From: Gemmatimonadota bacterium
GTDB lineage: Bacteria > Gemmatimonadota > Gemmatimonadetes > Gemmatimonadales > GWC2-71-9
Assembly (NCBI GenBank): GCA_031382385.1
Contig: JANMYS010000026.1
Coordinates: 3,954 to 67,953 of the forward strand
Direction: 5' to 3'
DNA length: 64,000 nt
Position numbers and translations under genes: made by a program. Under the pieces are notes generated by a model that ran no database searches, was not told the DNA's origin, and worked only from the letters and a program-made list of their open reading frames with translations. Position 1 is the stretch's first letter; every line of letters begins with the position of its first letter. Of this stretch, positions 18,739-32,989 are shown piece by piece.

Positions 18739-19242
18739 ATGGCCAGCAACCCCACATTCGACATCTCCACCGGCGCCGACCTCCAGGAGGTGGATAACGC
18801 CGTGAATCAGACGCTCAAGGAGATCGGGCAGCGGTACGACTTCAAGGGAACCACCTGCACGGTCGAGTTCGATCGGGAGAAGGCGGAAATCCGCCTCGCC
18901 GCGGATAGTGATTTCCGCATGGACCAGCTGGTGGATGTGCTCCGCATCAAGATGATCAAGCGGGGCGTACCGGTGAAGAATCTCGATTTTGGAGAACCGG
19001 AGGAGGCCACGATGGGCTCGGTCCGGCGCACGGTGAAGCTCACGCAGGGGATCGAGACCGAAGCCGCCAAGAAGATCGTCAAGGCGGTGCGGGATCAGGG
19101 ATTCAAGAAAGTGCAGGCGACCATCCAGGGCGACGAAGTCCGGGTGACCGCCCCGTCACGGGATGAGCTGCAGGCGGTCATCGCCTTCCTGCGGACGCAG
19201 GACTTCGAGATTGAACTCAAGTTCGGGAACTATCGCGGGTGA
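18739..19242 (+). CDS. yajQ: YajQ family (UPF0234) nucleotide / cyclic-di-GMP-binding protein
   Basis: 167 aa. MASNPTFDISTGADLQEVDNAVNQTLKEIGQRYDFKGT...QATIQGDEVRV matches YajQ along its whole length. Confidence 0.85.
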   Translation: MASNPTFDISTGADLQEVDNAVNQTLKEIGQRYDFKGTTCTVEFDREKAEIRLAADSDFRMDQLVDVLRIKMIKRGVPVKNLDFGEPEEATMGSVRRTVKLTQGIETEAAKKIVKAVRDQGFKKVQATIQGDEVRVTAPSRDELQAVIAFLRTQDFEIELKFGNYRG

Positions 19243-20507
19243 GACGAAACGCCGGCGGAAGGGGCCGCGTTCGACGGTACGCTGCGGCAGGCTTGCTGCT
19301 GCTGGCGACCTGCGCACCGCCGATGGGCGATCTGCAGTCGCCCCCCGCGCCCTCCGCAGCCGCGCCCGAGATCCGGATCGGCCTCCTGGTCGGGTCCTCC
19401 ACCGTGGAGGTCACTGGCGATAGCGGCGCCGTGGTGCAGGACGCTGATGGGAACAGTGTGGGGGCTATCGAGCCGGGCTCGCCCTGGCGGGTCCGATCCG
19501 CCGCAGGTCTGGTCGACGCCGGTGCCGCTGGCGGGTGGCAGGTGACGGGACAACAGCAGCTGACCTTCCAGCCGCGGGTCGCCGGCGGCTGGCTCCGGGT
19601 GGGCGGACGCCCGTATCGGGGGCGCCTCACGGTTGCCCGGGACCGCACCGGACTCACGGTGGTCAATGTGGTGAGTCTGGAAGACTATCTCGCCGGTGTC
19701 GTCGCGGCGGAGATGGGGCGGCGGGATTCAACCGAAGGCCAGGCTCTCGCCGCCCAGGCGATCGTCTCCCGCACCTTCGCGCTGCGGAATCTGGGGAAGC
19801 GCGCCACGGAAGGCTTCGATCTGTACGCCAGCGTGGCCGACATGGTGTACGCCGGTGCCAGTGCGGAGTATGCGGCGGCCACTGCCGCCGTGGCCGCGAC
19901 CTCCGGCCAGATCCTCACCTGGCAGGGGGTGCCGATCGATGCCTTCTTCTTCTCGACCTGTGCCGGTCAGACCGCGACTGGCACCGATGTCTTCGCCGCG
20001 GCGGACCGGCCCTACCTGCAGTCCATCCGGGATGTGGACTCCGAGGGGCAGGCGTACTGCCGGATCTCGCCCCGCTTTCGCTGGCGGGAGGAGTGGACCA
20101 TCGAGCAACTGCGTGGCGTGCTGAAGTCCACCCTCCCGTCTGCGTCCGCCGTCACGGCGGAAGCCGCGGCGGGCGTCCGCGGCGTCAGCATCAGCCGCCG
20201 AACCGCGTCGGATCGGGTGTCACGGGTGACGATCCAGCTGCGGAGCGGCGATGTCGTCGTCGAGGGGCCCGCGATCCGGCGGGTGCTGCGCCCGGTGGCA
20301 GATGCGGTGCTGCGGAGCGCCATCTTCCAGCTCAGCGAGACGCGGGAAGGCGGCCAGCTCCGGCGGCTGGTGGCCGACGGCGCCGGTGCGGGACATGGGG
20401 TCGGGTTCTGCCAGTGGGGGGCGGTGGGACGGGCGCGGGCAGGGCAGGATGCGCCGACGATACTCGCCGCCTACTTTCCGGGCACATCATTGAGCCGCGC
20501 GTACTGA
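19239..20507 (+). CDS. SpoIID/LytB domain-containing lipoprotein (lytic transglycosylase / amidase-enhancer family)
   Basis: The GTG start overlaps the yajQ stop (GTGA). Lipobox LLLLATC. Motifs: SLEDYLAGVVAAEMG, ALAAQAIVSRTFAL, FFSTCAGQTA, GHGVGFCQWGA. Confidence 0.8.
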   Translation: MRRNAGGRGRVRRYAAAGLLLLATCAPPMGDLQSPPAPSAAAPEIRIGLLVGSSTVEVTGDSGAVVQDADGNSVGAIEPGSPWRVRSAAGLVDAGAAGGWQVTGQQQLTFQPRVAGGWLRVGGRPYRGRLTVARDRTGLTVVNVVSLEDYLAGVVAAEMGRRDSTEGQALAAQAIVSRTFALRNLGKRATEGFDLYASVADMVYAGASAEYAAATAAVAATSGQILTWQGVPIDAFFFSTCAGQTATGTDVFAAADRPYLQSIRDVDSEGQAYCRISPRFRWREEWTIEQLRGVLKSTLPSASAVTAEAAAGVRGVSISRRTASDRVSRVTIQLRSGDVVVEGPAIRRVLRPVADAVLRSAIFQLSETREGGQLRRLVADGAGAGHGVGFCQWGAVGRARAGQDAPTILAAYFPGTSLSRAY

Positions 20508-20528: not shown

Positions 20529-21542
20529 ATGTCCGACACACTCAAACTGGGCATCATCGGCGCCGGGGCAATCGCCCAGGTGGCCCACCTCCCCGTCCTC
20601 CGGAAGCTCAAGGGCGTGGATGTCGTCGCCATCTGCGACACCGACGTCGCCAAGGCCCGCGCACTCGGCACCCGTTTCGGGATCCGCGATGCCTTCAACG
20701 ATATCGAGGAGCTGCTGGAGTACGAGCAACTCGATGCCGTCGCGATCTGTACGCCGAACCACCTGCATGAGCCGCACGTGCTCGCCGCGCTGACTGCCGG
20801 TGTGCATGTGCTGGTCGAGCGGCCGCTCGCCTTCACCGCCCAGGGGGCACAGCGGATTCTCAAGCAGGCCGAGAAGCGGGGCAAACACCTGATGATCGGC
20901 ATGAATCACCGGTATCGCGCCGATGTGCAGATCGTGCGCAGCTTCATCCAGAGTGGCGAGCTGGGCCGCCTGGAGAGCGTCCGCGGCAGCTGGCACGTCT
21001 TCCGTCCCAGTCGCGCCCAGCTCGGCTGGCGCCAGCGGCGCGACGAGTCGGGCGGTGGCGCGATGCTCGACCTCGGAGAGACGATCCTGGATCTTGGCTT
21101 CTGGCTGGCCGGCAATCCGAAGCCGCTCCGGGTCAGCGCCAGCCTCCATGGCGGCGATGGCACGAAGGGCGGGGTGGAGCAGTCCGGCAGCGCCTTCGTG
21201 GTGTGCGAAGGGGGATTCTCGATCTTCCTCGATGTGACGTGGCATCACGTCGGTGAGGGCGAACGCTTCGGACTCGGGGTGAAGGCCAGCAAGGGAAGCG
21301 CCGGCATCAACCCGCTGCACGCCTGGAAGGAGCTGCACGGCGTACCGACCGACGTGGCGCCGACCGGATCGATCAGCCGGGAGAATGCCTTCACCGCCTC
21401 GTACCGCGCGGAGTGGGCCCACTTCCTGGGTGTCCTGCGGGGAGAGGCGAAACCGTTCGACAACCAGGAGCAGCTGACGCTGCACCGCGTGCTGGACGGG
21501 ATCTACAAGTCCTCGGCCGAGGGACGGGACGTCGAACTGTGA
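20529..21542 (+). CDS. Gfo/Idh/MocA family oxidoreductase
   Basis: 337 aa. Rossmann N-terminus LKLGIIGAGAIAQVAH, then AICTPNHLHEPH and LVERPLA. Confidence 0.85.
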   Translation: MSDTLKLGIIGAGAIAQVAHLPVLRKLKGVDVVAICDTDVAKARALGTRFGIRDAFNDIEELLEYEQLDAVAICTPNHLHEPHVLAALTAGVHVLVERPLAFTAQGAQRILKQAEKRGKHLMIGMNHRYRADVQIVRSFIQSGELGRLESVRGSWHVFRPSRAQLGWRQRRDESGGGAMLDLGETILDLGFWLAGNPKPLRVSASLHGGDGTKGGVEQSGSAFVVCEGGFSIFLDVTWHHVGEGERFGLGVKASKGSAGINPLHAWKELHGVPTDVAPTGSISRENAFTASYRAEWAHFLGVLRGEAKPFDNQEQLTLHRVLDGIYKSSAEGRDVEL

Positions 21543-21557
21543 GGGGGGCTGGGAGAC

Positions 21558-21652
21558 TGGGCGATTGGGCGATTGGGCGGGTAGGTCGGGCCTCCGTGCC
21601 CGACCGTCGATTAGGCGATTGGGCGATTGGGCGATTGGGCGGTTGGCTGATT
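21558..21652. repeat. Two blocks of the 8-bp microrepeat GGGCGATT (reverse complement of the 5680 unit) flanking an 8-bp-stem hairpin
   Basis: Block 1 is ctgggcgattgggcgattgggcgggtagg. The hairpin is ggtcgggc-ctccgt-gcccgacc (21584-21605). Block 2 is ttaggcgattgggcgattgggcgattgggcggttggctgattg. Block 2 overlaps the candidate start codons of the next gene. Confidence 0.9.
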
Positions 21653-22909
21653 GTCGCGCTGCTCTGCAGTGCCACTCCACTTTCCGCCAGTCAGGCGAGC
21701 GCCCGTCCGCCCGTCCGCCCGTCCGCCCCGCGCGTGGCCGAGCCCGGCTCCAATCTGCGCATCTCCATCCGCACCATGGGCCCCGGCGCCGACGTCTGGG
21801 AGCGCTTCGGGCACAACGCCATCGTGGTGGAAGACCAGGCCGGTGGCCGCCGGACGGCCTACAATTACGGGATGTTCAGTTTCCGGCAGGAGAACTTCAT
21901 CCTCCGCTTCATCCAGGGCCGGATGCACTACTGGATGGCCGGCTTTCCCGCTGAGGAGGATCTCGCCCGCTACGTCGCCGCTGGCCGCTGGGTACGGGAG
22001 CAGGAGCTGAACCTCACGCCGACGCAGCGCGCGGCGGTCCGCGACTACCTCGAGTGGAATGCCCTGCCGGAAAACCGCTTTTACCGCTACGACTATTTCC
22101 GGGACAACTGCTCCACCCGGGTCCGTGATGCCATCGACCAGGTGCTCGGCGGCGCGCTGCATGCCCAGAACCTGGACCCCGCCAGCGGGACCTTCCGCTT
22201 TCATACCCAGCGCCTCGTCGATAACAGCGTGCCGCTCTACACCGGGTTGCTGCTCGCCCTTGGGGCCGGTGTCGACCGGCCGCAGACCCGGTGGGATGAG
22301 ATGTTCCTGCCGTTCAAGCTCCATCAGTACCTGAGCACCGCGACGATCCGCGACGCCTCTGGTGCGGACATTCCGCTGGTCCTCCGCGAGCAGACGCTGT
22401 TTGAGAGTGATCGCTACCCCGTGCCCGAGGTTCCGCCCGACTGGTGGCCGGGCTACCTCGCGATGGGACTCCTGGTGGGGGGATTGCTCTGGTGGGGCGG
22501 GGTGGCGGGGAGAGCACGTGTTACGGCCAGGCGCACCATGCTGCTGCTCGGCACGTTCTGGGCGCTGTTGACCGGTGTCGCGGGGGCCATTCTCGCCGGA
22601 CTGTGGGCGTTGACCGACCATGTCGCCGCGGCAAACAATGAGAACGTGCTGCAGTGCTCGCTGCTTGCCCTGGCGCTGGCGTTCGTGTTGCCACCCGCGC
22701 TCCGCGACCGGAGCGGTCCACTGCGCGCGGCGCGGATGCTGGCGATGCTGGTCGGTGGGCTGTCGTTGCTGGGAGTGGTGCTGAAGGTGCTGCCGATGTT
22801 CCATCAGGTGAACGGGCAGGTGCTGGCCCTCACAGTTCCGGCCAACCTGGGGCTGGCACTCGGTGTCCTCGCCTGGGCGCGTGGCACTGGTGAATCTACA
22901 TTCGGCTGA
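21635..22909 (+). CDS. DUF4105 (Lnb N-terminal periplasmic domain) protein with a C-terminal multi-TM region
   Basis: Track ORF 21413..22909 overlaps the previous gene and reads through the repeats. I start it at TTG 21635 (M)GGWLIVALLCSATPLSASQA, a signal peptide. GTG 21596 is an alternative start. Motifs: GHNAIVVED, YNYGMFSF, YRYDYFRDNCSTRVRD. Confidence 0.65.
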   Translation: MGGWLIVALLCSATPLSASQASARPPVRPSAPRVAEPGSNLRISIRTMGPGADVWERFGHNAIVVEDQAGGRRTAYNYGMFSFRQENFILRFIQGRMHYWMAGFPAEEDLARYVAAGRWVREQELNLTPTQRAAVRDYLEWNALPENRFYRYDYFRDNCSTRVRDAIDQVLGGALHAQNLDPASGTFRFHTQRLVDNSVPLYTGLLLALGAGVDRPQTRWDEMFLPFKLHQYLSTATIRDASGADIPLVLREQTLFESDRYPVPEVPPDWWPGYLAMGLLVGGLLWWGGVAGRARVTARRTMLLLGTFWALLTGVAGAILAGLWALTDHVAAANNENVLQCSLLALALAFVLPPALRDRSGPLRAARMLAMLVGGLSLLGVVLKVLPMFHQVNGQVLALTVPANLGLALGVLAWARGTGESTFG

Positions 22910-22924
22910 CGGCTGACAGCTGAC
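22904..22924. repeat. Tandem 7-bp microrepeat (GGCTGAC x3: ggctgac ggctgac agctgac)
   Basis: Read directly. It spans the stop codon of the DUF4105 gene (TGA 22907-22909) and ends 5 nt before the convergent HD-GYP gene stop. Confidence 0.85.
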
Positions 22925-22929
22925 GGCCC

Positions 22930-24900
22930 CTACGGCCGATTCACCGCCAGGCTATCCCTCCGCCGTTCCGGCCGTTCCTCCCAGATCTTCGCCTCAACAA
23001 AGACCTTGAACAGCTCAGCGTCGAGCTGGCCCTGTTTCACCTCGTCGCCGAGAATGTCCAGGGCGCGAGTGGCCGGGAGGGCCCGCTTGTACGGCCGGTC
23101 CTGGGCTGTCAGCGCGTCATAGATGTCGGCGATCGTCATCATCCGGGTCTGCAGTGGAATGGCGTCGCCACCGACCTTTCTGGGGTAGCCCGCACCATTC
23201 AGCTTCTCGTGGTGGCCGCGAGCGATATGCGGCACCTGCGCCAGCCCCGCCGTCCACGGAATCTTCCGCAGGAACTCGTAGGTGTGGGAGACATGGCTCT
23301 CGATTTCCAGCCGCTCCCGCTCATCCAGGCTGCCCTTCCGGATGCTCAGCAGCCGTACCTCAGGGGCAGTGAGGAACGGCTGCTCGACCCCATCGGGATC
23401 GGTGTAGTGGCGAGCGGCAAATTCGCCGAGCAGCGCGAAGTCCCCTTCCGCCAGCACCGTCGGTTCATTGGCGGCCAGCACGACCTTGAGGAAGCGGTCG
23501 GCGGTCTCCAGCGACTCGCGGTGCGCCGCGTCCAGCGTCGCGAGGAACTCGTCGTAGCCCGCTCGCCCGTGAGTGGCCAGAAAGTCGGCCCGGGCCTTCT
23601 CGAATTCCCACTCCGTGCTGCGCCGGATGAACGCATGCCGCTGACGGACGATCACGAGGTCGCCCTCGTAGAGCTTCTTGGCCTTGACCAGCACCTGCTC
23701 CCGGACGCCCACCTTGCCAAAGTCATGCAGCAGTCCGGCGTAACGCAGCTCGCGCAGGTGTTCCCTGGTGAAGCTGATGTCCCGGAACGGGCCGTCCTGC
23801 AGCGCGTCGATCGCTTCCGCCAGCCCGACGGTGCGGGTCGCGACCCGTTCGGAGTGGCCTGAGGTGGTAGGATCGCGCTGCTCGATCGCATGAACCGAGG
23901 CCCGCACGAAGCCCTCGAACAGCCGCTCGATCGACTCATAGAGCTGGCTGTTCTCCACCGAGACCGCGGCCTGACCGGCCAGGGCCTTTACGATCTTCAC
24001 CGTGTGCGGACTGTAGGCGACGATCTGGCGAGTCGCCTCCTCCGGTGTGGTGAGCCGCGCTGCCGTATCCCGCTTGCGGTTGAGCAGTTGCAGGATCCCG
24101 ATCACGTCGCCGTGGTGGTTCTGCATCGGGATGACGAGCATCGACTTGGTGCGGTAGCCATAGCGCTCGTCGAACGACCGGTTGAACGAGTACTCGACAT
24201 CCGGCGGAAGCATGTACACATCCTCGATCACCAGCGCCTCACCCTCGGTGGCGGCGTAACCGGCCAGCGAAGCGTGATCGATCGGGATGGTGAATTCCAC
24301 CAGCGGGATATCCGGCCGACTGTCGTTCTGACTCAGTTTGAATCGCAGTCGCCGGGTGCCGAACTCGTCGGTCTCGGCGATGTACAGGCTGCCCGCGTCC
24401 GATTGCGTGACTCGGCGGGCCTGGCTCAGGATCAGCTCGAGGAGGCTGTCGAGGTTCTTTTCGGTCGTCAGCCGCACACCGATATCGGCCAGCTCGGTGA
24501 GGTCGTTCAGCCGGGCCGCGCTTTCGGCGCGTGCCTTTGTCTGTTCTCGATGGGAGGCGGAGACCCTGAATGCTGCCCGGAGCGCGACCAGCAGCTGGCG
24601 CGGGCCCACCGGGGCTTTCAGGAACCCGCTCAGGAGTTCGGCGGGGAGATCGGCGGGAATGTCGGCTTCGGCGGCATCGCCCAGGGCCAGCAGGGCGACG
24701 CCACCGTCGCGCAGCCCGGTGAGTAGCTGGGTGGTGACCTGTTGCCGGGCCGGCAGGTCGAGGAGGTAGGCGACCGGTCGGTCATCGGCACGGATTTCGG
24801 ACGGTGATGCCACGGCGCGCAGCTCCACCTGCTCGGCGGCGAGGGGAGCGGCCAGTTCCCCCGGCGACCAGGAGGGGGGGTGGAAGAGGAGGAACTTCAC
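22930..24900 (-). CDS. HD-GYP domain cyclic-di-GMP phosphodiesterase with a GAF domain and an N-terminal receiver-like region
   Basis: 656 aa. The GAF-like core is SDAGSLYIAE...MLVIPMQNHHGDVIGILQLLN. HD-GYP motifs: SGHSERV, LLHDFGKV, GHHEKLNGAGYP. The start overlaps the mlaD stop by 4 nt. Confidence 0.85.
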   Translation of the reverse strand: MKFLLFHPPSWSPGELAAPLAAEQVELRAVASPSEIRADDRPVAYLLDLPARQQVTTQLLTGLRDGGVALLALGDAAEADIPADLPAELLSGFLKAPVGPRQLLVALRAAFRVSASHREQTKARAESAARLNDLTELADIGVRLTTEKNLDSLLELILSQARRVTQSDAGSLYIAETDEFGTRRLRFKLSQNDSRPDIPLVEFTIPIDHASLAGYAATEGEALVIEDVYMLPPDVEYSFNRSFDERYGYRTKSMLVIPMQNHHGDVIGILQLLNRKRDTAARLTTPEEATRQIVAYSPHTVKIVKALAGQAAVSVENSQLYESIERLFEGFVRASVHAIEQRDPTTSGHSERVATRTVGLAEAIDALQDGPFRDISFTREHLRELRYAGLLHDFGKVGVREQVLVKAKKLYEGDLVIVRQRHAFIRRSTEWEFEKARADFLATHGRAGYDEFLATLDAAHRESLETADRFLKVVLAANEPTVLAEGDFALLGEFAARHYTDPDGVEQPFLTAPEVRLLSIRKGSLDERERLEIESHVSHTYEFLRKIPWTAGLAQVPHIARGHHEKLNGAGYPRKVGGDAIPLQTRMMTIADIYDALTAQDRPYKRALPATRALDILGDEVKQGQLDAELFKVFVEAKIWEERPERRRDSLAVNRP

Positions 24901-25832
24901 GGCTGCGACACCGGCAGGAGTGAATCCTGGGCGAGCGGGCGCACCCCGGTCACGAGCTTGTGCGGTCGGCGCGTGATCTCGTCGATGAAGTGATCGAGCT
25001 TCCGGCTCATGACATACATGTTGTTGAGCGTGCGCTTGATGTCCGGGCTCACATCCGTCGACAGCGCGGTCATGTGCGTCGTGAGCGAATCGACATCCTG
25101 CATCAGCCGGCGCGCTTCGGTCAGCGTTCCCAGCAGGGAATCCTGAAGCGTGCCCAGCCGCGCATCCGTGCTGCTGAGCATGCGTTGTGCCTGGGCAATC
25201 GTCGGCTGCATCTGGTCCAGTGTCTGTTGCGCGCTGGCGAGGGTCGCTCGAAGCGCGGGCGCGGTCGCCGTCATCTCCGACTGCGCGGTCGTCGCCGTCC
25301 GGTCGAGCGTCGAGAGCAGCTGGCGGGTGTCGCGCAGGATGCCGGAGACCTGGGTCCGCAGCGTGTCGGCCACTTCCTTCAGCACATCGGTCCAGCCCTG
25401 GGTCAGCGCTCCACGGATCGTGTCGCCCTCCACCAGCACCGCCTGGATGTCATTCTTGGGGACCACGAGCGCGATCGACGCACTGCCGATCAGGCCGGTC
25501 GACACGATCTCCCCCGCCGTGCCGAGCCGGAGCCGGATGGGAACGCCGTTGGCGAAGCGCTCACGGAGCCGCAACGCGACCAGGAATTCGGGCGGGCCCA
25601 TGGCAAGGCTGTCTCCCATCGGCGAGATCGCCGAAACCTCGCCGATGTTGAGGCCCTGCAGGAAGACCGGCGTGTCCTGCTTCAGGTCCTGGACCGAGGG
25701 GCTGCGCATGTAGATGGTGACCCGCCGTTCGGTCCAGCCGCGCGTCAGCACGATCGCCGTGAGGGCGACGGCAACGGCGCCGAGGACGAGGAGACCGATG
25801 AGGGCATCGGCGGAACGGGTGCGGAGAGTCAT
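24897..25832 (-). CDS. mlaD: MlaD/MCE-family substrate-binding protein with a long C-terminal coiled-coil region
   Basis: 311 aa with an N-terminal TM helix (ALIGLLVLGAVAVALTAIVL). The MCE domain reads VTIYMRSPSVQDLKQDTPVFLQGLNIGEVSAI. Confidence 0.8.
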   Translation of the reverse strand: MTLRTRSADALIGLLVLGAVAVALTAIVLTRGWTERRVTIYMRSPSVQDLKQDTPVFLQGLNIGEVSAISPMGDSLAMGPPEFLVALRLRERFANGVPIRLRLGTAGEIVSTGLIGSASIALVVPKNDIQAVLVEGDTIRGALTQGWTDVLKEVADTLRTQVSGILRDTRQLLSTLDRTATTAQSEMTATAPALRATLASAQQTLDQMQPTIAQAQRMLSSTDARLGTLQDSLLGTLTEARRLMQDVDSLTTHMTALSTDVSPDIKRTLNNMYVMSRKLDHFIDEITRRPHKLVTGVRPLAQDSLLPVSQP

Positions 25833-26539
25833 CGGATCGTTTCCATCTGCCCGCGAGCCAGCCGGATCTGCCGGTCCACCCGGCGCCGGAGCACGGCGGG
25901 CAGATCCGTGCCCGTGAGGAAAACCGTGCGCCGGGCGCCTTCGGCCGTCTCGCCGCCGCGGGCCGCCTCCAGCAGTTCGCCGGCAGCGCGCTCGGTGATG
26001 CCATCGAAGGGGTCTTCGAGGATGACGAGCTCGGGATCGAACGCCAGCGCGCGCCCGAGGGCGGTGCGACGGCGGTCTTCGGCTGTCGCCTGAGCCGGCC
26101 GGAGATCGCCCACGCGGGACAGTCGCAATTGGGCCAGGATCACGTCAACCCGTCCTTCGATGTCCTTGGGTCTGTAGTCGCTGCCGAAGCGGAGCGGGAG
26201 TCGGATGTTCTCGCGCAGCGTAAGATTCTGCATCAGCCCCTCGCCGGCGGGAAGGTATCCGAGCTTCCGGCGGAAGGCGAGCCGGGCCCGTCGCTCGAGG
26301 TGGGCCACTTCCGTCCCCAGGGTGAAGACGTGTCCGGACGGTGCGGTCTCGAGGCCCAGCGCGAGCCCGCCCAGCAGGTCCACGCCACTCTGCTCATCGC
26401 CCATGACCGCCACGGTTTCCCGGGCGGCGACCGTCAGGGTCAGCGTCGTGGCGAGGTCGATTCCTGACGGGGGTCCAGCCAGGGTGGAACGCTGGACCCG
26501 GCCGAGCGGAATGCCGTCGAATACCAGGGGCGCGGTCAT
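25829..26539 (-). CDS. ABC ATPase-like protein at the MlaF position, with degenerate catalytic motifs (probable pseudo-ATPase)
   Basis: 236 aa, collinear with ABC NBDs. Walker A reads GDEQSGVD (expected GxxxxGK[ST]). The Q-loop region reads LGYLPA. The signature reads ATAED (expected LSGGQ). Walker B reads LVILEDP (expected hhhhDEP). The H-loop reads FLTGTD, with no His. Confidence 0.7.
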   Translation of the reverse strand: MTAPLVFDGIPLGRVQRSTLAGPPSGIDLATTLTLTVAARETVAVMGDEQSGVDLLGGLALGLETAPSGHVFTLGTEVAHLERRARLAFRRKLGYLPAGEGLMQNLTLRENIRLPLRFGSDYRPKDIEGRVDVILAQLRLSRVGDLRPAQATAEDRRRTALGRALAFDPELVILEDPFDGITERAAGELLEAARGGETAEGARRTVFLTGTDLPAVLRRRVDRQIRLARGQMETIR

Positions 26540-27324
26540 GCCCGCAGCACGGCGACGATGATCGCTGCCAGCACGAAGATGACGGCGATCGAGCCGACCG
26601 TGCCGCGGATCACCGCCTGCGGAATCTCGGTCGGGCCACGCCGAACGGAGAGCCCTTCATAGCTCGGGATCAGTCCGATCACCAGTCCGAAAATGAGCCC
26701 CTTGATCGCTGTCAGGACGACGTCGAGCGTCGTCAGCTGGGCCAGCACGATGCTGAAGTACCGCGCCCCGCTCATCCCGCCGATCACGCCGGCGGCGAGA
26801 TAGCCGCCGCCGATAGCGATCACGTCGAACAGGATCATCAGCGTGCAGACCGAAACCACGCAGCCGAACAGGCGGGGCAGGACGAGGTAGTGGAACGGGT
26901 CGATTCCCATCCCTTCGAGGGCGCGCACCTCTCCGAGGACGGTGTTGGTGGCGAGTTCCGCGGCGATCGCGGTGCCGCTCCGGCCGACGATGGCCAGGGC
27001 GGTGAGCAGCGGCCCGAGCTCCCGCACGATCACGACGACCATGAGCTGCCCGATCAGTTCCGACGCCCCCACCTTGTCCAGCTGGGCGATGGCGCTGGAG
27101 ATGGTGAGGTAGCTCAGGACGGTCGACAGCAGGACGATCAGGCCGACGGCTTCAAGTGCGGTGAAGCGGAGCTGATTGAGCAGCACCCGCGCCGCCACCC
27201 GCCTGCCGGCGCCGGGCAGGCTGGGCAGCGAGCTGAAGGCCTCAAAAGCGAAGCGCGCCAGCGCGCCCACCCGGGCGAGCCAGCGCGCCGTCCCACGCCC
27301 AATGGCGGCGAGGAAATCGATCAC
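26536..27324 (-). CDS. mlaE: MlaE-family ABC transporter permease
   Basis: 262 aa. VIVRELGPLLTALAIVGRSGTAIAAELATNTVLGEVRALEGMGIDPFHYLVLPR is the hallmark MlaE segment. Multiple TM helices. Confidence 0.85.
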   Translation of the reverse strand: MIDFLAAIGRGTARWLARVGALARFAFEAFSSLPSLPGAGRRVAARVLLNQLRFTALEAVGLIVLLSTVLSYLTISSAIAQLDKVGASELIGQLMVVVIVRELGPLLTALAIVGRSGTAIAAELATNTVLGEVRALEGMGIDPFHYLVLPRLFGCVVSVCTLMILFDVIAIGGGYLAAGVIGGMSGARYFSIVLAQLTTLDVVLTAIKGLIFGLVIGLIPSYEGLSVRRGPTEIPQAVIRGTVGSIAVIFVLAAIIVAVLRA

Positions 27325-27328
27325 CGGC

Positions 27329-28054
27329 TCAGCCGCCGCTGATCTTCTTCAACCCCTCATTCGCCTCGGCGTAGTCGGGGAAGACATCAATGGCCTTGCG
27401 GTAGAACTCCGCGGCCTTCGTCTTGTCACCCCGATCCTGGTAGAGCAGGGCGCGGCTGTAGTAGGTGAGCGCCTCGGTGGGCACGTTGCGCGCCCGTACC
27501 GCGCGGCTCATCTCCGCGGTGAGTGCCGGCAGCTTCGTTTCGGCCATCAGCCGCTCCGCCACCGTCTGCAGCAGCTTGAACAGCTCTTCCCGCTTCTCGA
27601 ACTTGGGGTCGCTGCGGACCACCTTGAGGATTTCGCTGGTTTCGACATCGACAATGCGGGCATCGACCCGGAAACGGCCGTACAGGTCGACGAAGCTGCC
27701 CATCACCATGTACCGGGCGCCGACCAGCTTGCCGATCTTCGCGGCGGTTGCCGCATCGGCCCGGCCGTCCTTGCCGAGGTTCTGCTCGTCCAGCAGCCGC
27801 TGGACGCTGCTGCGGTCCACGATGCGCGCGGCGGGATTCTGGGCCAGCTCGCTGATGAGCATGCCGGCGATGCCCTTCTCCAGCGCTTCGAAATTTTCCT
27901 TGTCCTGCCCGTAGGAACCGCCGTTCTCGAACGGCATGACCGCGATGCCGGGACGGGAATCCTGCGCCTGGAGTGCCGGGAGCGCGGGCGATGTAAGCAG
28001 GGCCGCGAGAGCGAGCGCGAACAGCTGTCGAGACTGCATAGTGTTGTACCTCAT
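27329..28054 (-). CDS. Exported CsgG/LpoB-like domain protein with a C-terminal TPR segment
   Basis: 241 aa with signal peptide LFALALAALLTSPALPALQAQ. IAVMPFENGG...GIAGMLISEL...VDRSSVQRLLDEQNL...IGKLVGARYMVMGSF resembles CsgG-like periplasmic lipoprotein folds. The C-terminus ALTYYSRALLYQDRGDKTKAAEFYRKAIDVFPDYAEA is TPR-like. The ATG at 28054 overlaps the MBL stop (TGATG); the ATG at 28039 is an alternative. Confidence 0.55.
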   Translation of the reverse strand: MRYNTMQSRQLFALALAALLTSPALPALQAQDSRPGIAVMPFENGGSYGQDKENFEALEKGIAGMLISELAQNPAARIVDRSSVQRLLDEQNLGKDGRADAATAAKIGKLVGARYMVMGSFVDLYGRFRVDARIVDVETSEILKVVRSDPKFEKREELFKLLQTVAERLMAETKLPALTAEMSRAVRARNVPTEALTYYSRALLYQDRGDKTKAAEFYRKAIDVFPDYAEANEGLKKISGG

Positions 28055-28920
28055 CAGAGAGACAGGGCCATACCTTCCTTGGCCGCATCGACCACCAGGC
28101 CGGGCGCGTGGGCCGCGGCATAACTCCGGGCGCCGATCAGCATGGCGTCCACTGCACTGTCATCGTGTTCCGGCTCATGGTGAAACAGCACCAGCCGACG
28201 GCACCCCGCCTCGTGCGCCAGGTCAACCGCCTGTTCGGGGGTCGAATGCCCCCAGCCGGCCCGCGACTCGATCATGGCTTCGGAGTACATCCCGTCATGA
28301 ATCAACGTATCGACCCCCTGCAGGAATCTCACCAGTCCGGCCCGCCAGTCCGGTCCGACGTCGTAGCTGCCCCCGGTGCCAAGCTCGTTGTCGGTGATGT
28401 AGGCCATAGTCCGCCCGCCGCGCGCCGGGACCAGCTTGTAGCCCAGGGTGTTGCCCGGGTGCCGCAGCCGATAGGCTTCGACCAGAAATCCGTCGATCTC
28501 GAAGGTACCACTGACCACCTCGGTGATGGTCAAATCGGCCGTGAGCGCCTTCAACGGTACCGGGAACACAACCGGGTCCATCTGCCGGTCGAGGATCTCC
28601 TCCAGCGGGACGCCCGCTTGCGCGGCCCCGAAGATCCGCACCGTGTTCCCCTTGGTGTTCAGCGGCTGGAAGAACGGCAGCCCCTGAATGTGGTCCCAGT
28701 GGGTATGCGACAGCAGGATGTCCAGGTTCATGGCGCCGCTCGAGGCCCGCATCAGCTCGCGCCCCAGCAGCCGGATCCCGCTCCCCGCGTCGAGGATGAC
28801 CAGCTGGTCACGATTCCCGGAGACCGCGACGCAGGAGGTGTTTCCCCCGTAGCGCGCGGTATGGACGCCGGGTGTAGGAATCGACCCCCGGGTGCCCCAG
28901 AACGTGACAGTGTAGGTCAC
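28054..28920 (-). CDS. MBL-fold metallo-hydrolase
   Basis: 288 aa. VTFWGTRGSIPTPG, YGGNTSCVAV, and the metal-binding motif LLSHTHWDHIQG (HxHxDH). Confidence 0.8.
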   Translation of the reverse strand: MTYTVTFWGTRGSIPTPGVHTARYGGNTSCVAVSGNRDQLVILDAGSGIRLLGRELMRASSGAMNLDILLSHTHWDHIQGLPFFQPLNTKGNTVRIFGAAQAGVPLEEILDRQMDPVVFPVPLKALTADLTITEVVSGTFEIDGFLVEAYRLRHPGNTLGYKLVPARGGRTMAYITDNELGTGGSYDVGPDWRAGLVRFLQGVDTLIHDGMYSEAMIESRAGWGHSTPEQAVDLAHEAGCRRLVLFHHEPEHDDSAVDAMLIGARSYAAAHAPGLVVDAAKEGMALSL

Positions 28921-28980
28921 TGTGCCTCGCGAATCACGGGTGCTGAGCTTGCAAGGAGCCTGCCAGTGAGACGGTGGGGA

Positions 28981-29005
28981 CGGCGCACACGGGCGGTGTG
29001 CGCCG
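28981..29005 (-). terminator. GC-rich hairpin immediately after the crp-family stop (10-bp stem, no U-tract)
   Basis: cggcgcacac-gggcg-gtgtgcgccg, read directly, 3 nt downstream of the stop at 29008. The lack of a U-run makes terminator function uncertain. Confidence 0.35.
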
Positions 29006-29007
29006 GA

Positions 29008-29685
29008 TCACGACCGCCCGGCGGCGCGCTCGAGCAGCGGGCGATTGACGATGGTGATTTCCTTGCGGCTGACCTGAATCAGGCCCCGCTCCACGAAATC
29101 CCGCATCGTCCGGGAGACGGTCTCCCGGCTCGATCCGATCATCTGCGCGATCACATGATGGGTGATCTTCTTCGTGACCATGTCACCGCCCTCCTCCTCG
29201 GCGAGGCGCAGGACCAGATCGGCCACCCGCCCGTTCACGTCGAGCAGTACCAGGCTGCCGATCTTCTCATCGGCCCGGCGCAGCCGGCGGGACAGCTCCC
29301 GCATGAGGGCGATCGCCACCTCCGGCGAGCTGCGGAGGCGGGCCTGGAAGTCTTCGCGCCGCAGCACCAGCACGGCGGCGTCGATCATGGCGATCACCGT
29401 GGCGGAGCGGGGCTGATCGTCGATCAGCGACATTTCGCCGAAGAAGCTGCCCTCGCCCAACACGGACAGGATGACCTCGCGACCGTCCTCCCCGATCAGA
29501 ACCACCTTGACCTGGCCGGAGGCCACGAGATAGAGCGCGTCGCCGGGATCGTCTTCGAAGACAATGACGCTCCCCTTCGGGTAGGTCCGTTCACGGACCA
29601 GCTCGGAGAAGGCGGTAATGTCACCCTCTCGCATAGTGGCAAAGAGCGGGACCTTCTTCAGTACCTCAAGCGGGCTGAGCGGCAA
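29008..29685 (-). CDS. Crp/Fnr family transcriptional regulator
   Basis: The cNMP-binding domain includes [22 protein letters not shown] and [17 protein letters not shown]. The HTH is [23 protein letters not shown]. The track start at 29859 adds 58 non-conserved codons and reaches to within 12 nt of the rpmE start. I prefer the in-frame TTG at 29685, which gives a typical family length of ~225 aa. Confidence 0.8.
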
Positions 29686-29778
29686 AGTGCCCTCAATGTT
29701 GTGGAAGTGTCGGTCCCTACGATACTTATGTCGTTTCAGCCTGTCAAACAGCCCCCACGGCACCAGTCGGGGGTGAGG

Positions 29779-29808
29779 TTGTTCCACCGGGGGAAGGGCT
29801 GCTATATT
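29779..29808 (+). promoter_or_regulatory. Possible sigma70 promoter for rpmE-prfA-prmC (TTGTTC-18 nt-TATATT)
   Basis: Hexamers at 29779-84 and 29803-08, followed by the AAGGAG RBS and the GTG start at 29871. Confidence 0.35.
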
Positions 29809-29870
29809 CCCCGGCTGCGAAATCCAGACTGTTTCACGGCCCCGTCCGCGGGGTATCAAGGAGCGATGTC

Positions 29871-30089
29871 GTGAAGGCCAATCTTCATCCGAAGTATCAG
29901 AAGGTCACGGTGCAGTGCGCCTGTGGCAACGCCTTTGAGACGCGGTCGACCAGCAGCGCCGTCAAGGTCGACATCTGCGCCAAGTGCCATCCGTACTTCA
30001 CCGGCAAGACGCGGCTCATCGATACCCAGGGTCGGGTCGACCGCTTCCGCAAGAAGTACGCAGGCGACAAGGCCACGGCCCAGAGCTGA
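29871..30089 (+). CDS. rpmE: 50S ribosomal protein L31 (Zn-ribbon type A)
   Basis: 72 aa. [27 protein letters not shown]...[12 protein letters not shown] with CxxG...CxxC cysteines. Confidence 0.95.
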
Positions 30090-30092
30090 GCC

Positions 30093-31151
30093 ATGGAGGC
30101 CAGACTCCGCCAGGCGCTCGCCCGGGCGGAGGATGTCGCCAAGGCGTTGGCCGACCCCTCGACCACCAGTGACCCGGCCAGGCTGAAATCGCTCGGCCGG
30201 GAGTACACCCGCCTCCTTCCCATCGTCCGTGCCTCCGACCGGCTCGACCGGCTCCAGCTGGAGCTTGCCCAGGCTCGCGAGCTGGCTTCCGAATCCGATC
30301 CCGAGATGGTCGAGATGGCACAGGCCGATCTCGACCGCCTCCCCCCGCTGATTACCGCCGCCGAAGCGGAATTGCACGACCTCCTGCTGCCGCAGGATCC
30401 GCTCGATGATCGCGATGCGATCGTCGAGGTCCGGGCGGGGACCGGCGGCGACGAAGCCGCGCTCTTCGCCGCGGACCTCTTCCGGATGTACCAGCGGTTC
30501 ATCCAGCGGAAGGGCCTCACGCTCGAGATGATTTCGGTCAGCGACGGCACATCCGGTGGGCTGAAGGAAGCGATCTTCGCCGTGCGGGGGGCGGATGCCT
30601 TCGGGTTGCTGCGCCGGGAGGCCGGGGTGCACCGGGTACAGCGCGTGCCGGCTACCGAGTCGCAAGGGCGCATCCACACCTCCGCTGCCACGGTGGCGGT
30701 CCTGCCGGAAGCCGAGGAAGTGGATGTCTCGATCCACCCGAACGACCTGAAGATCGACGTCTTCCGCGCCTCGGGGCCGGGTGGCCAGAGCGTGAACACC
30801 ACCGACAGCGCGGTGCGGATTACCCATCTGCCCACCGGTCTGGTCGTCTCGCAGCAGGACCAGAAGTCCCAGCTCCAGAACAAACTCAAGGGCATGGAAG
30901 TGCTGCGCGCCCGCCTGCTGGACCGTCGTATAGCCGAGCAGGAGTCGGCCCGGTCCCGAGAGCGCCGTTTGATGGTGGGCACCGGGGACCGTTCGGCCAA
31001 GATCCGGACGTACAACTACCCGCAGAGCCGGGTCACCGATCACCGGATCAACGTCTCGGTGCACAATCTCCCCGACGTGCTGGATGGAGCGCTCGACGGG
31101 TTCATCGATGCCTTGCGCATGGCCAGTCGCCATGAACAGGATGGTGACTGA
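30093..31151 (+). CDS. prfA: Peptide chain release factor 1
   Basis: 352 aa. PAT tripeptide (RVPATESQGRIHTS) and GGQ (SGPGGQSVNTTDSAVRITH). Confidence 0.95.
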   Translation: MEARLRQALARAEDVAKALADPSTTSDPARLKSLGREYTRLLPIVRASDRLDRLQLELAQARELASESDPEMVEMAQADLDRLPPLITAAEAELHDLLLPQDPLDDRDAIVEVRAGTGGDEAALFAADLFRMYQRFIQRKGLTLEMISVSDGTSGGLKEAIFAVRGADAFGLLRREAGVHRVQRVPATESQGRIHTSAATVAVLPEAEEVDVSIHPNDLKIDVFRASGPGGQSVNTTDSAVRITHLPTGLVVSQQDQKSQLQNKLKGMEVLRARLLDRRIAEQESARSRERRLMVGTGDRSAKIRTYNYPQSRVTDHRINVSVHNLPDVLDGALDGFIDALRMASRHEQDGD

Positions 31152-32004
31152 CGCCGAGGCAGGCCCCCGGCTGGCGGATCTGCTGCGCACCGGTGCTGCC
31201 CGGCTGGCGCGGGGTGGGGTCGATGATCCTCGCCGCGAGGCGAGCCGGATCTGGGCGGATCTGGCAGGAATGGTGCCGGGTGACGCGTCACGAATGGCCG
31301 ACGGGCCAGTGGGCCGGGACCTCGTCGTGCGGTTCGATGGGGCGATCGAGCGGCGGGCCGCCGGCGAACCGCTGCCCTACGTCACCGGGCTCGCAGGCTT
31401 CCGGCGCCTCACCCTGCATGCCGACCGGCGAGCCCTGATCCCGCGGCCGGAGACCGAAGGGCTGGTGGAACTGGTCCTGACCCATGCGCCGGTCGGGCGG
31501 GTGGTGGATATCGGCACCGGGACCGGCTGCATCGCGCTCGCGCTCGCTCAGGAAGGGCGATACGATTCGGTCGTCGCCGTCGATCAGTCCGCCGATGCCC
31601 TCGCCCTGGCACGGGAGAATCGCCGGGCAACCGAGCTTCGCATCGAGCTGGTGCGGTCCGACCTGCTCGTGGCTTTTGGGCCGGGCGCCTTTGACGTTAT
31701 CGTGTCCAATCCGCCCTATCTGACGGTGGCGGAGTACGCCTCCCTCGATCGCTCGGTGCGGGATTGGGAGCCGGCGGCGGCGTTGCCGAGTGGTGCGGAC
31801 GGGCTGGAGGCCACTCGCCGGCTGATGGGGGAGGCGCTCGACCGGCTCCGGCCCGGGGGCCTGCTCGCCCTCGAAGTGGATGCGAGCCGGGCGCAGGATG
31901 TGGCAGAGCTGGGCCGGGCGCCGGGCTGGACCGGTGTCACGGTGCACCATGACCTTTTCAACCGTGCGCGCTACCTGCTCGCATGGAGGAGCGAATTCTC
32001 GTGA
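31132..32004 (+). CDS. prmC: Release factor glutamine-N5 methyltransferase PrmC
   Basis: Track ORF 31084..32004, trimmed to ATG 31132 (MNRMVTD); 31141 is also possible. Motifs: SAM-binding VVDIGTGTGCIALAL and catalytic IVSNPPY. It overlaps the prfA 3' end. Confidence 0.85.
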   Translation: MNRMVTDAEAGPRLADLLRTGAARLARGGVDDPRREASRIWADLAGMVPGDASRMADGPVGRDLVVRFDGAIERRAAGEPLPYVTGLAGFRRLTLHADRRALIPRPETEGLVELVLTHAPVGRVVDIGTGTGCIALALAQEGRYDSVVAVDQSADALALARENRRATELRIELVRSDLLVAFGPGAFDVIVSNPPYLTVAEYASLDRSVRDWEPAAALPSGADGLEATRRLMGEALDRLRPGGLLALEVDASRAQDVAELGRAPGWTGVTVHHDLFNRARYLLAWRSEFS

Positions 32005-32354
32005 TTTGGGACAAGGCAGAGGAGCTGGGGCGGTTGATCGGGCAGACGGCGGAATACAAGGCGCTTCGCCGGGCGGAGACGGTCCTCCGGGAAGATGCCG
32101 ACGCCCAGGCCAAGGTGACACTCATCCAGAAGCTCGCCCGGCAGATGGACGAGTTGGTGACCCAGGGGCAGATGCCTGACCAGGCGACCGCCGAGACCTA
32201 CGAGAACGCCGTCCGGGAGCTGGAAGTGAGCCCGATCGGGCAGGCCTATGCCGTCGGCCGGGCCAACTTCGAAAAGGTCATGGTCAAGGTGAACCAGCTG
32301 ATCGCGCAGGGGATGGAGAAGGGCGCCACCAGCAGCATCATCACGCTGGGATGA
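31983..32354 (+). CDS. YlbF/YmcA-like (UPF0342) helical protein
   Basis: 123 aa. IWDKAEELGRLIGQTAEYKALRRAE...DAQAKVTLIQKLARQMDEL resembles YlbF-family proteins. The start may be the GTG at 32001, which overlaps the prmC stop (GTGA). Confidence 0.5.
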   Translation: MEERILVIWDKAEELGRLIGQTAEYKALRRAETVLREDADAQAKVTLIQKLARQMDELVTQGQMPDQATAETYENAVRELEVSPIGQAYAVGRANFEKVMVKVNQLIAQGMEKGATSSIITLG

Positions 32355-32989
32355 GTCGCGGCTGGTTTCTGGCAGTGGAAGGCCCCGAAGGGGCGGGGAA
32401 GAGCACTCTGGTCCGGGCGCTCGCGGATCGCTTTCTGGCGGCGGGGCTCGACCCGGTGCTGGTCCGGGAGCCGGGCGGAACCCCGGTCGCCGAGCGGATT
32501 CGGGCGGTACTGCTCGATCCGACCCACGGGATCGAACCGGTCAGTGAACTCTTCCTGTTTCTTGCCGCCCGGGCGGATCTGGTCGCCCGGGTCATCCGTC
32601 CGGCGCTTGCGGCCGGGAGGCCGGTGCTGGCCGACCGGTTCCAGCTCTCGACCGAGGCCTATCAGTGTGGCGGCCGGGGCCTTCCGCGCGAGCTGTTCCA
32701 GGCCGCAAACCTGGCGGCCACCGGCGGCCTAGCTCCCGACCTGACCCTGGTGCTCGATCTGCCGCCGGAACTCGGCTTCGCCCGCATCCGTACCACCGGC
32801 GGGACGCTGGACCGCATCGAACAGGCTGGGGCGGCGTTTCACGCCCGAGTCGCCGAGGTATTCCGGAACGCGACAGGCGCCTCCCTGGTGCATCTGGACG
32901 CGACCCAGTCGTCGGAACAGGTCTTGCAAGCTGCTTGGTCCGCAGCGCGCGCCCTGCTCACCGGCGCACCGAGGACCGACCGACATTAG
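32351..32989 (+). CDS. tmk: Thymidylate kinase
   Basis: 212 aa. P-loop FLAVEGPEGAGKST, REPGGT, and LADRFQLSTEAYQ. Confidence 0.9.
   Translation: MSRGWFLAVEGPEGAGKSTLVRALADRFLAAGLDPVLVREPGGTPVAERIRAVLLDPTHGIEPVSELFLFLAARADLVARVIRPALAAGRPVLADRFQLSTEAYQCGGRGLPRELFQAANLAATGGLAPDLTLVLDLPPELGFARIRTTGGTLDRIEQAGAAFHARVAEVFRNATGASLVHLDATQSSEQVLQAAWSAARALLTGAPRTDRH

Follow-up and report, generated by a model that had tools for sequence, protein, structure and literature searches.

A Gemmatimonadota operon with Mla-type genes, a conserved pseudo-ATPase in the MlaF position and an HD-GYP protein

Research on MCE/Mla systems treats them as lipid transporters that run on ATP and serve to build and maintain the outer membrane. 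In a 64-kb stretch of DNA from a Gemmatimonadales metagenome-assembled genome (hereafter, the window), genes for an MlaE-family permease, a protein resembling the nucleotide-binding domain (NBD) of ATP-binding cassette (ABC) transporters, and an MCE protein lie in one string with genes for a metallo-beta-lactamase (MBL) fold enzyme, an exported CsgG-N/LpoB-like protein with C-terminal TPR repeats, and a GAF/HD-GYP protein. The question raised by this locus is whether it encodes an ATP-driven transporter at all, and how an enzyme of cyclic di-GMP (c-di-GMP) type turnover comes to be encoded beside it. An earlier note on this DNA had described six translationally coupled genes in a non-canonical Mla arrangement and had suggested a lipid or polymer trafficking module linked to second-messenger control. 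Reading of the window open reading frames (ORFs) confirmed the six genes and their coordinates, all on the minus strand and in the order MBL, exported protein, MlaE, NBD-like protein, MCE and GAF/HD-GYP. The sequence at each join likewise agreed with the junctions described: TGATG at 28054 between MBL and the exported protein (1-nt overlap), a 4-nt gap at 27325-27328 between the exported protein and MlaE, ATGA overlaps at 26536-26539 (MlaE/NBD-like) and 25829-25832 (NBD-like/MCE), and a GTGA overlap at 24897-24900 (MCE/HD-GYP). No terminator-like site was found on the minus strand inside the six-gene string. Pfam and NCBIfam searches, of the kind the note had named as a check, upheld all six domain assignments, and the gene content was indeed not that of a canonical Mla operon.

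The protein in the MlaF position

We aligned the NBD-like protein to the structures of LolD and MlaF. The window protein has GDEQSGVDL where LolD has the Walker A sequence GSSGSGKST; in addition, the Q-loop Gln was replaced by Ala, the LSGGE signature of LolD by ATAED and the Walker B DE by ED, and the H-loop His was absent. These replacements were invariant across an alignment of 17 sequences. Among 82 orthologs, the position of the Walker A Lys held V, L, I or A and never K, the Q-loop position was never Q (Ala in 79), and no SGG signature occurred. The Walker B Asp position was Glu in 78 of them, the catalytic Glu position was mostly Gln (63), and the H-loop position was also mostly Gln, with His in 6. 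The motif set of a functional ABC ATPase (Walker A, Q-loop, LSGGQ, Walker B and H-loop) was thus lacking and, as judged by these motifs, the protein is a conserved pseudo-ATPase without the residues for ATP binding and hydrolysis. The label of an ATPase-like protein in the MlaF position held for the NBD fold and for the gene position, and the Walker A Lys, the Q-loop Gln and the signature were lost throughout the 82 orthologs. Because of this loss, a trafficking module in the ATP-driven sense of Mla is doubtful.

The gene is not in decay, since its ratio of nonsynonymous to synonymous substitution rates (dN/dS) against four relatives (0.06-0.18) was like those of MlaE (0.01-0.14) and HD-GYP (0.05-0.15), and since the AlphaFold2 model of the NBD was confident (predicted local distance difference test score 82.8, predicted TM-score 0.83). 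The corresponding dN/dS ranges were 0.25-0.38 for MCE and 0.04-0.09 for MBL. Note that values for the Crp-like regulator gene, which precedes the six genes, were disregarded because start-coordinate mismatches make them unreliable. In Foldseek comparisons, the model gave TM-scores of 0.82-0.84 to LolD, YbbA and the NBD of MacB, and of 0.83 to MlaF in 6xbd. The most invariant stretch of the protein, GYLPAGDGLLQNLTLRDNIRLPLRFGSD, covers the Q-loop and the helical subdomain, the region that contacts the permease in ABC transporters, suggesting that docking on MlaE has been retained. Residues of the remodelled nucleotide site (E49, S51, G52 and V53; E154, R157 and R158) were also invariant within the family. 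The family proper is narrow: a profile search of 1.84 billion representatives gave 18 clusters below 1e-30, and the full-length members inspected had a P-loop of the GDExSGV type or a close variant. When the 64-kb window and ~10 kb to each side of the cluster in five related loci were scanned for motifs, no canonical ABC ATPase ORF turned up.

The window operon shares with the MlaFEDB system and the ancestral MlaEFD core, as known in E. coli and Veillonella parvula, the E-F-D gene order, overlapping starts and stops, and an MCE protein with an N-terminal transmembrane helix (PMC10665443). It differs from MlaFEDB in its NBD, which is without ATP motifs and has 236 aa against 269 for MlaF, and in its gene content, which adds HD-GYP, MBL, a periplasmic TPR protein and Crp; no gene for MlaB (STAS), MlaC or MlaA was found in the operon or among the annotated neighbors. 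Going by these motifs, the module is built of Mla/MCE parts, lacks the ATPase that defines the transporter, and is not classed as an MlaFED transporter. Non-canonical Walker B, signature or H-loop residues are also a feature of heterodimeric ABC exporters such as PatAB and CFTR. However, those keep one consensus hydrolytic site, whereas a homodimer of the window protein would carry two dead sites, since the window has a single NBD gene. A full-text literature search gave no account of a catalytically dead MlaF-like protein or of a link between MCE proteins and c-di-GMP enzymes, and the phylogenomic paper on the Veillonella Mla system does not mention Gemmatimonadota.

Conservation of the gene cluster in relatives

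Conservation of the gene neighborhood had been set beforehand as a test that could refute a link among these genes. We collected 13 loci from species-representative genomes and 80 metagenome contigs, of which 86 had a usable match to the ATPase-like protein (52-97% identity), and mapped the window proteins onto them by tblastn, counting a neighbor where the contig reaches it. The homologues of the ATPase-like protein were annotated as Gemmatimonadales or Gemmatimonadota, and the DNA runs carrying the region came from freshwater-sediment metagenomes. On the testable contigs, the same strand and order were found for Crp in 45/45, MBL in 50/50, the exported CsgG-N/TPR protein in 66/66, MlaE in 74/75, MCE in 73/73 and HD-GYP in 53/53 loci. 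The lone break (L055:1-1300) has an opposite-strand cysK-like gene directly against a pseudo-ATPase gene cut off at residue 68, lacks MlaE upstream of it, and is either a rearrangement or a chimeric contig. The genes thus stayed together in the relatives examined, with this locus without MlaE as the sole exception. Because the neighborhood is conserved, a functional link of the MCE/MlaE module to second-messenger turnover is well supported. The unit is also larger than the six genes first described: these are real, and the Crp-like regulator, present in all 45 loci that could be scored, and a conserved palindrome (see below) belong to it as well.

The same seven genes were found in a deeper clade of Gemmatimonadota (L094 and L095), where the NBD is 45% identical to that of the window. 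In this clade, the divergent L31, RF1 and PrmC genes flank one side as in the window, and the downstream genes differ: an Lnb-like gene in the window clade, NTP_transf_3/APH in L094 and a hydantoinase in L095. The linkage of the seven genes therefore outlasts the surrounding synteny. The start-stop overlap of MCE and HD-GYP was kept in 61 of 64 loci and the other internal junctions were mostly overlaps or at most 15 nt apart, while the gap between Crp and MBL was 54-105 nt (median 89) in all loci measured. The gene arrangement is far beyond chance.

Two irregularities lie at the MCE/HD-GYP junction. In L067 (2600-2640), the C-terminal tail and stop codon of MCE are missing and the ORF continues in frame into HD-GYP to give 932 aa; this single case could be a real fusion or an error, and the fused HD-GYP would sit on the wrong side of the membrane. 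In L073 (8060-8130, ~70 nt) and L070 (7780-7812), both from one metagenome series, a long poly-C tract separates the 3' end of MCE from the start of HD-GYP; these tracts are probably sequencing or assembly artefacts. Fusions of MCE and HD-GYP were therefore not used as evidence, since the frame in L070 is joined by the poly-C tract and L067 is one case.

Partner proteins, control region and neighboring genes

The HD-GYP protein of the window carries the motifs HDFGK and HHEKLNGAGYP, and HDxGK and HHExxxGxGYP were intact in 45 of 45 full-length orthologs, three of them with Leu at the K/R position. By its motifs, the protein is catalytically intact and fits the sequence definition of the family. 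Its nearest solved relatives were PmGH of Persephonella marina (4mcw, in two stretches, 137-420 and 523-634) and V-cGAP3 (5z7c), which likewise have a GAF followed by an HD-GYP domain with intact HD and HHExxDGxGYP motifs. Given that PmGH acts on c-di-GMP and V-cGAP3 is specific for cyclic GMP-AMP (cGAMP), the substrate would be c-di-GMP or 3'3'-cGAMP; the designation as a cyclic-dinucleotide phosphodiesterase is backed by the motifs, the choice between these two nucleotides not being assignable from sequence. The window enzyme differs from both relatives by an additional N-terminal receiver-like domain and by a fixed insertion of ~100 aa between the HD and GYP halves. The HD-to-GYP spacing was 170-171 aa in 42/42 orthologs measured, indicating that the insertion is a family trait, and a profile of the insertion found nothing meaningful in the PDB. 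A receiver-like beta-alpha pattern runs through the N-terminal ~115 residues, whose profile matched receiver-type domains weakly (CpaE 4n0p, E=0.01; CpxR, E=0.84). This domain has an invariant Asp in 'LLD' and carries 'HxPxW' where the acidic pocket would be, and the full receiver set of phospho-acceptor Asp, acidic Mg2+ pocket, Thr/Ser and Lys was not found; the domain reads as a non-phosphorylatable pseudo-receiver. As a lead only, the closest solved relatives of the GAF domain were GAFs that bind cyclic nucleoside monophosphates (cNMPs), namely those of CyaB2, PDE2, PDE5 and PDE10.

The permease is a divergent member of the MlaE family by its profile scores, matching TIGR00056 at 141 bits, below the cutoff of 212. 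The MCE protein consists of an N-terminal transmembrane helix, one MCE domain and a helical C-terminal region of ~170 aa; MlaD structures matched its residues 5-142 at E=0.003, and the Mtu_fam_mce model matched near full length (46.6 bits). It is the fastest-evolving member of the cluster, with ~30% identity where its partners retain 55-68%. In its long helical C-terminal region and its near full-length match to Mtu_fam_mce, it resembles the MCE proteins of the mycobacterial Mce1-4 systems. However, the window has one permease and one MCE gene, not two and six, together with a dead NBD-like gene, and its host is a diderm.

The exported protein had been called CsgG-like, with TPR repeats, and also a lipoprotein. 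The export, the repeats and an N-terminal CsgG half were found again: the CsgG match covers only model positions 5-99 of 210, and LpoB matches the same region. A full-length CsgG with lipobox Cys and the half bearing the transmembrane hairpin was not found, so that the protein is no CsgG channel. The lipoprotein label fell, since neither the window protein nor any of the orthologs listed has a lipobox Cys after its Sec signal peptide; the mature N-terminus QDTRPGIAVLPFxNGGS is conserved among these orthologs. By these features it is a soluble periplasmic TolB-N/LpoB-like protein with TPR, neither a CsgG channel nor a lipoprotein. The MBL protein matched the NCBIfam models of RNase Z (84.8 bits), cNMP phosphodiesterase and PhnP, all far below their cutoffs, and RNase Z/ELAC1 was its best match in a profile search of the PDB (48 bits). 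It is placed by these profiles in the RNase Z/ElaC-like phosphodiesterase branch, a substrate class not being assignable by Pfam, NCBIfam or PDB profile. A weak Apyc1 match seen with one ortholog did not recur when 12 orthologs were searched at E<=1.

The Crp-like gene starts with the TTG at 29685, preceded by GAGGG, and not with the TTG at 29859: conservation among orthologs begins at about residue 57-61 of the long ORF, and the shorter product of 225 aa compares with orthologs of 224 aa. The protein carries an 'RSA' phosphate-binding motif of the cNMP type. As a lead only, the pairing of a receiver-type HD-GYP enzyme with a Crp-family regulator resembles RpfG-Clp of Xanthomonas, in which a REC/HD-GYP phosphodiesterase controls a c-di-GMP-responsive Crp-like regulator; the window receiver differs in being without an acidic phosphorylation pocket, and no partner kinase is present.

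We compared 41 distinct Crp/MBL intergenic sequences. A CRP/FNR-type palindrome, represented in the window by GTGATCCGGCGCAC, was found as a perfect GTGA-N6-TCAC in 32 and as a relaxed GTGA-N6-NCAC in 40, against a chance expectation by shuffling of 0.035 perfect copies across the 41. It is no by-product of coding, since it lies wholly downstream of the stop codon in 7 sequences. Relative to the predicted transcription start, its center would lie ~60-65 nt upstream in the window clade and the deeper clades alike, a spacing typical for activation by CRP-family proteins, and we regard it as the putative operator of the six-gene operon. Downstream of it, the window has a sigma54-type element, TGGCAGGCTCCTTGCA, which begins ~46 nt from the first base of the palindrome, has the exact spacing of the consensus TGGCAC-N5-TTGCW, and is the sole match to TGGCA-N6-TTGCW in the 64 kb (0.13 expected). 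This element was found at a fixed position in 9/41 intergenic sequences, all with at least 68% pseudo-ATPase identity; in the deeper clades its place is taken by another conserved element, TAACTTA (27/41). Both stand at equal distance from the palindrome, and the promoter type of the operon appears to have been swapped within the lineage. As a side observation, a 'CTTGT...N...GTAACTTAGC' element of the deeper clades (L030:2925-2933 and equivalents) loosely recalls Bacteroidota-type -33/-7 promoters. The hairpin that follows the Crp stop codon is a possible weak terminator or attenuator, the z-score of the leader being just -1.2, which is of weak significance. An Rfam search of 22500-30200 gave no match to a riboswitch or other known RNA at E<=1. 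One public metatranscriptome held related sequence, in patchy contigs of 90-95% identity for which carry-over of DNA is possible; one contig (677 nt) bridges the Crp/MBL gap and one bridges the pseudo-ATPase/MCE junction. The features of the locus are collected in Table 1.

Table 1. Genes, domains and sequence elements of the module and its surroundings, with the loci of a second family of degenerate NBDs.
Feature	Position	Strand	Basis or remark
Crp/FNR-family regulator, 225 aa	29008..29685	-	Pfam cNMP_binding 97.8 bits, HTH_Crp_2 67.6 bits
MBL-fold phosphodiesterase-like protein, RNase Z/ElaC-like branch	28054..28920	-	Lactamase_B_2 68 bits; HxHxDH intact (SHTHWDH)
Exported periplasmic CsgG-N/LpoB/TolB-N-like protein with C-terminal TPR	27329..28054	-	Pfam CsgG 69 bits, LpoB, TPR_1
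MlaE-family permease	26536..27324	-	PF02405 182.7 bits (cutoff 22.5)
Pseudo-ATPase, ABC NBD fold, 236 aa	25829..26539	-	ABC_tran just 39 bits
MCE protein	24897..25832	-	MlaD (PF02470) 30.9 bits (cutoff 25.1)
Receiver-like/GAF/HD-GYP phosphodiesterase, cytoplasmic	22930..24900	-	GAF 55 bits, HD 39 bits, HD_5 (PF13487) 104 bits
Receiver-like domain	~24556-24900	-	N-terminal profile
GAF domain	~23950-24459	-	Pfam 55 bits
HD-GYP domain	~22981-23913, ~100-aa insertion at ~23341-23667	-	Pfam
Putative sigma70-like promoter TTGACA-17-TATCGT	29719..29747	-	consensus scan, 10/12 positions; upstream of Crp start, region shared with divergent L31
CRP/FNR-type palindrome GTGA-N6-(T/G)CAC	28998..29011	-	overlaps Crp stop codon
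G+C-rich hairpin, 10-bp stem, no U tract	28982..29005	-	sequence and RNA fold; directly 3' of Crp stop, overlaps palindrome
Sigma54-type -24/-12 element	28950..28965	-	30 nt upstream of MBL start codon
L31	~29873-30080	+	diverges from Crp-like gene
RF1 (PCRF/RF-1)	~30093-31151	+	diverges from Crp-like gene
PrmC	~31084-32004	+	diverges from Crp-like gene
Thymidylate kinase	~32351-32989	+	diverges from Crp-like gene
YajQ	18739-19242	+	201 bits (cutoff 146)
SpoIID-domain protein	19239-20507	+	in plus-strand string converging on HD-GYP gene
GFO/IDH/MocA oxidoreductase	20529-21542	+	in same convergent YajQ string
Lnb-like protein	21413-22909	+	lipoprotein N-acyltransferase Lnb model 182 bits, below cutoff
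Second-family locus L097	4984-9718		
Second-family locus L099	4982-9746		
Second-family locus L100	3022-7730		
Second-family locus L101	3030-7745		
Second-family locus L102	521-5275		

Among the neighboring genes, the divergent plus-strand arrangement opposite the Crp-like gene was also found in the distant clade (L094 and L095). A 444-aa minus-strand ORF at 29856-31190 ('unk444') was rejected as an operon member, being a spurious antisense of the plus-strand L31 and RF1 genes. The YajQ gene, to which attention had been drawn as a c-di-GMP binder near the operon, is genuine, and it is no member of the module: it belongs to a separate convergent string on the plus strand that is syntenic in closer relatives only. 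It is absent from the neighborhood in L006 and in the distant clade, and the Lnb-like gene is likewise syntenic only in closer relatives.

Readings of the module

Degenerate NBDs of this kind were also found outside the family. About 50 of the best 150 representative matches to the pseudo-ATPase profile (P0121-P0270) were without Walker A and without LSGGQ, and many of these share an inverted Walker B 'LEDP', as 'LEDP[FY]xG'. Degenerate MlaF-like NBDs seem to be common and routinely annotated 'MlaF'. A second Gemmatimonadota family (278-281 aa, 33% identical to the window protein) has 'xSEWxxR' for the P-loop and the inverted Walker B 'EDP', and sits in MlaE/pseudo-NBD/MlaD triads that are divergently adjacent to a GAF-GAF-GGDEF gene with intact GGEEF in 5/5 loci. 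The gene beyond GGDEF varies and the adjacency is kept; AP_endonuc_2 and FecR genes follow in 5/5 loci, a cNMP-binding MscS channel gene is present in 4/5, and a CHASE2-cyclase gene in both loci that extend far enough. In a third family (P0156/P0507; JGI sample 3300059473), a GGDEF-EAL gene lies divergently next to the MlaE/NBD/MlaD triad. Three of the seven degenerate-NBD triad families sampled thus adjoin a c-di-GMP gene, which is well above expectation for direct adjacency to such enzymes; the sample is small and non-random, and the adjacency is a lead. Genes for TPR proteins also adjoin other degenerate triads (L103:7739-8611, which overlaps the MlaD stop, and L098:5220-6173), an echo of the periplasmic TPR protein of the window. 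The P-loop replacements of the three families (GDExSGV, xSEWxxR and GRRGLGKH) are unrelated, which speaks for ATP use having been lost in general and against a new nucleotide pocket common to them.

The reading that we favor, tentatively and at slightly less than even confidence, is that the seven genes form a Gemmatimonadota-specific module, in which an ATP-independent envelope complex of the Mla type is coupled to cyclic-(di)nucleotide signaling. Specifically, two MlaE, two pseudo-NBD and six MCE subunits would assemble as in MlaFEDB without an ATP cycle. The complex, as a sensor or scaffold, would sense the envelope through lipid occupancy or through contact by the helical extension of MCE, possibly with the periplasmic TPR protein, and would relay the envelope state to the HD-GYP enzyme by way of the pseudo-NBD dimer. 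The enzyme would probably dock by its pseudo-receiver, in analogy to the STAS protein MlaB on MlaF, and the output would be local hydrolysis of c-di-GMP (or 3'3'-cGAMP) reporting the envelope or lipid status. The Crp-like regulator, responsive to a cNMP or, like Xanthomonas Clp, to c-di-GMP, may close a transcriptional loop on the operon, and the MBL enzyme may clear the cyclic nucleotide of the regulator or the linear product of the HD-GYP reaction. The best matches of the pseudo-NBD, namely LolD, YbbA, MacB and FtsE, recall FtsEX, LolCDE, MacB and BceAB-BceS, which are ABC-like membrane complexes that pass conformational information across the membrane. All of these hydrolyse ATP, whereas any signal in the window complex would have to run without an ATP cycle, because the ATP site is gone.

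Several points weigh against this model. The proposed contact between the Mla-like complex and HD-GYP is drawn from operon membership, which can reflect co-regulation only, and co-transcription is itself unproven, the metatranscriptome contigs, patchy and of 90-95% identity, not being decisive. A sigma54 promoter needs an enhancer-binding activator, and the 64-kb window has no ORF containing GAFTGA. No c-di-GMP gene adjoined the triads in four of the seven sampled families with degenerate NBDs. A canonical ATPase of the MlaF/MceG type may exist elsewhere in the genome, the scan having covered the window and the cluster flanks, and the results fit either direction of information flow, from the envelope to the phosphodiesterase or from the nucleotide to the conduit.

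If the flow ran from nucleotide to conduit, MlaE/MCE would move or equilibrate lipids passively and the pseudo-NBD dimer would be a gate that a cyclic (di)nucleotide or the HD-GYP protein opens or closes, while HD-GYP (GGDEF in the paralogous system) sets the local level of the ligand. Such 'local' c-di-GMP modules are known from cellulose synthase and LapD-GcbC. The genomic evidence for the envelope-sensing model applies equally here; in addition, nucleotide-site residues invariant within the family are expected for a pocket with a new specific role, and one triad with a phosphodiesterase and another with a diguanylate cyclase fit an effector with dedicated enzymes. However, the three degenerate families do not share a P-loop replacement, which makes a ligand pocket common to them improbable, and the search for known c-di-GMP-binding motifs, made by scanning the window ORFs for a PilZ-type pattern, was negative. 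We hold such a gate to be unlikely. It is also rather unlikely, in our estimate, that the locus encodes an ordinary ATP-driven MCE transporter energized in trans by an MlaF/MceG-like ATPase, with the pseudo-ATPase as an accessory or regulatory subunit and HD-GYP, MBL and Crp as co-regulated neighbors. The mycobacterial Mce1-4 systems, with YrbE permeases and a shared MceG, are an established precedent for MCE operons without an active ATPase of their own, MlaE and MCE are under purifying selection, and the ATPase scan spanned only the window and cluster flanks. Yet the pseudo-ATPase gene stands in the place of MlaF, joined to each neighbor by a start-stop overlap, and the protein has its permease-contact region as its most invariant part, so that it would compete with a trans ATPase for the two sites of the MlaE dimer. 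Moreover, the 64-kb window and the cluster flanks of the five related loci yielded no canonical ABC ATPase, and co-regulation by itself hardly explains the rigid linkage to HD-GYP in all 53 testable loci.

An operon of convenience, co-transcribed and kept as lineage-specific synteny with no joint function, would owe its high counts to shared ancestry, given that all loci come from one phylum. Against it, the seven genes stay together where the flanks vary between clades, their order and overlaps are kept down to 45% NBD and ~30% MCE identity, and unrelated degenerate triads adjoin c-di-GMP enzymes as well; we therefore consider it very unlikely. A wider claim than the envelope-sensing model, namely that ATPase-dead MlaE/NBD/MCE triads are widespread unrecognized sensors or effectors of c-di-GMP networks and not ATP-driven lipid pumps, is speculative and somewhat unlikely.

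A motor subunit that is conserved without ATP chemistry would make this a new functional type of MCE/Mla machinery. Its tight linkage to a c-di-GMP phosphodiesterase, and to diguanylate cyclases in the paralogous systems, suggests a possible route for reporting the envelope or lipid state to second-messenger networks, or for gating lipid flow by second messengers. The c-di-GMP field would gain a new class of input or effector, and ABC research a naturally occurring module in which both sites are dead. For the Gemmatimonadota, which are abundant in soil and poorly studied, the module would be a first functional handle on their signaling.

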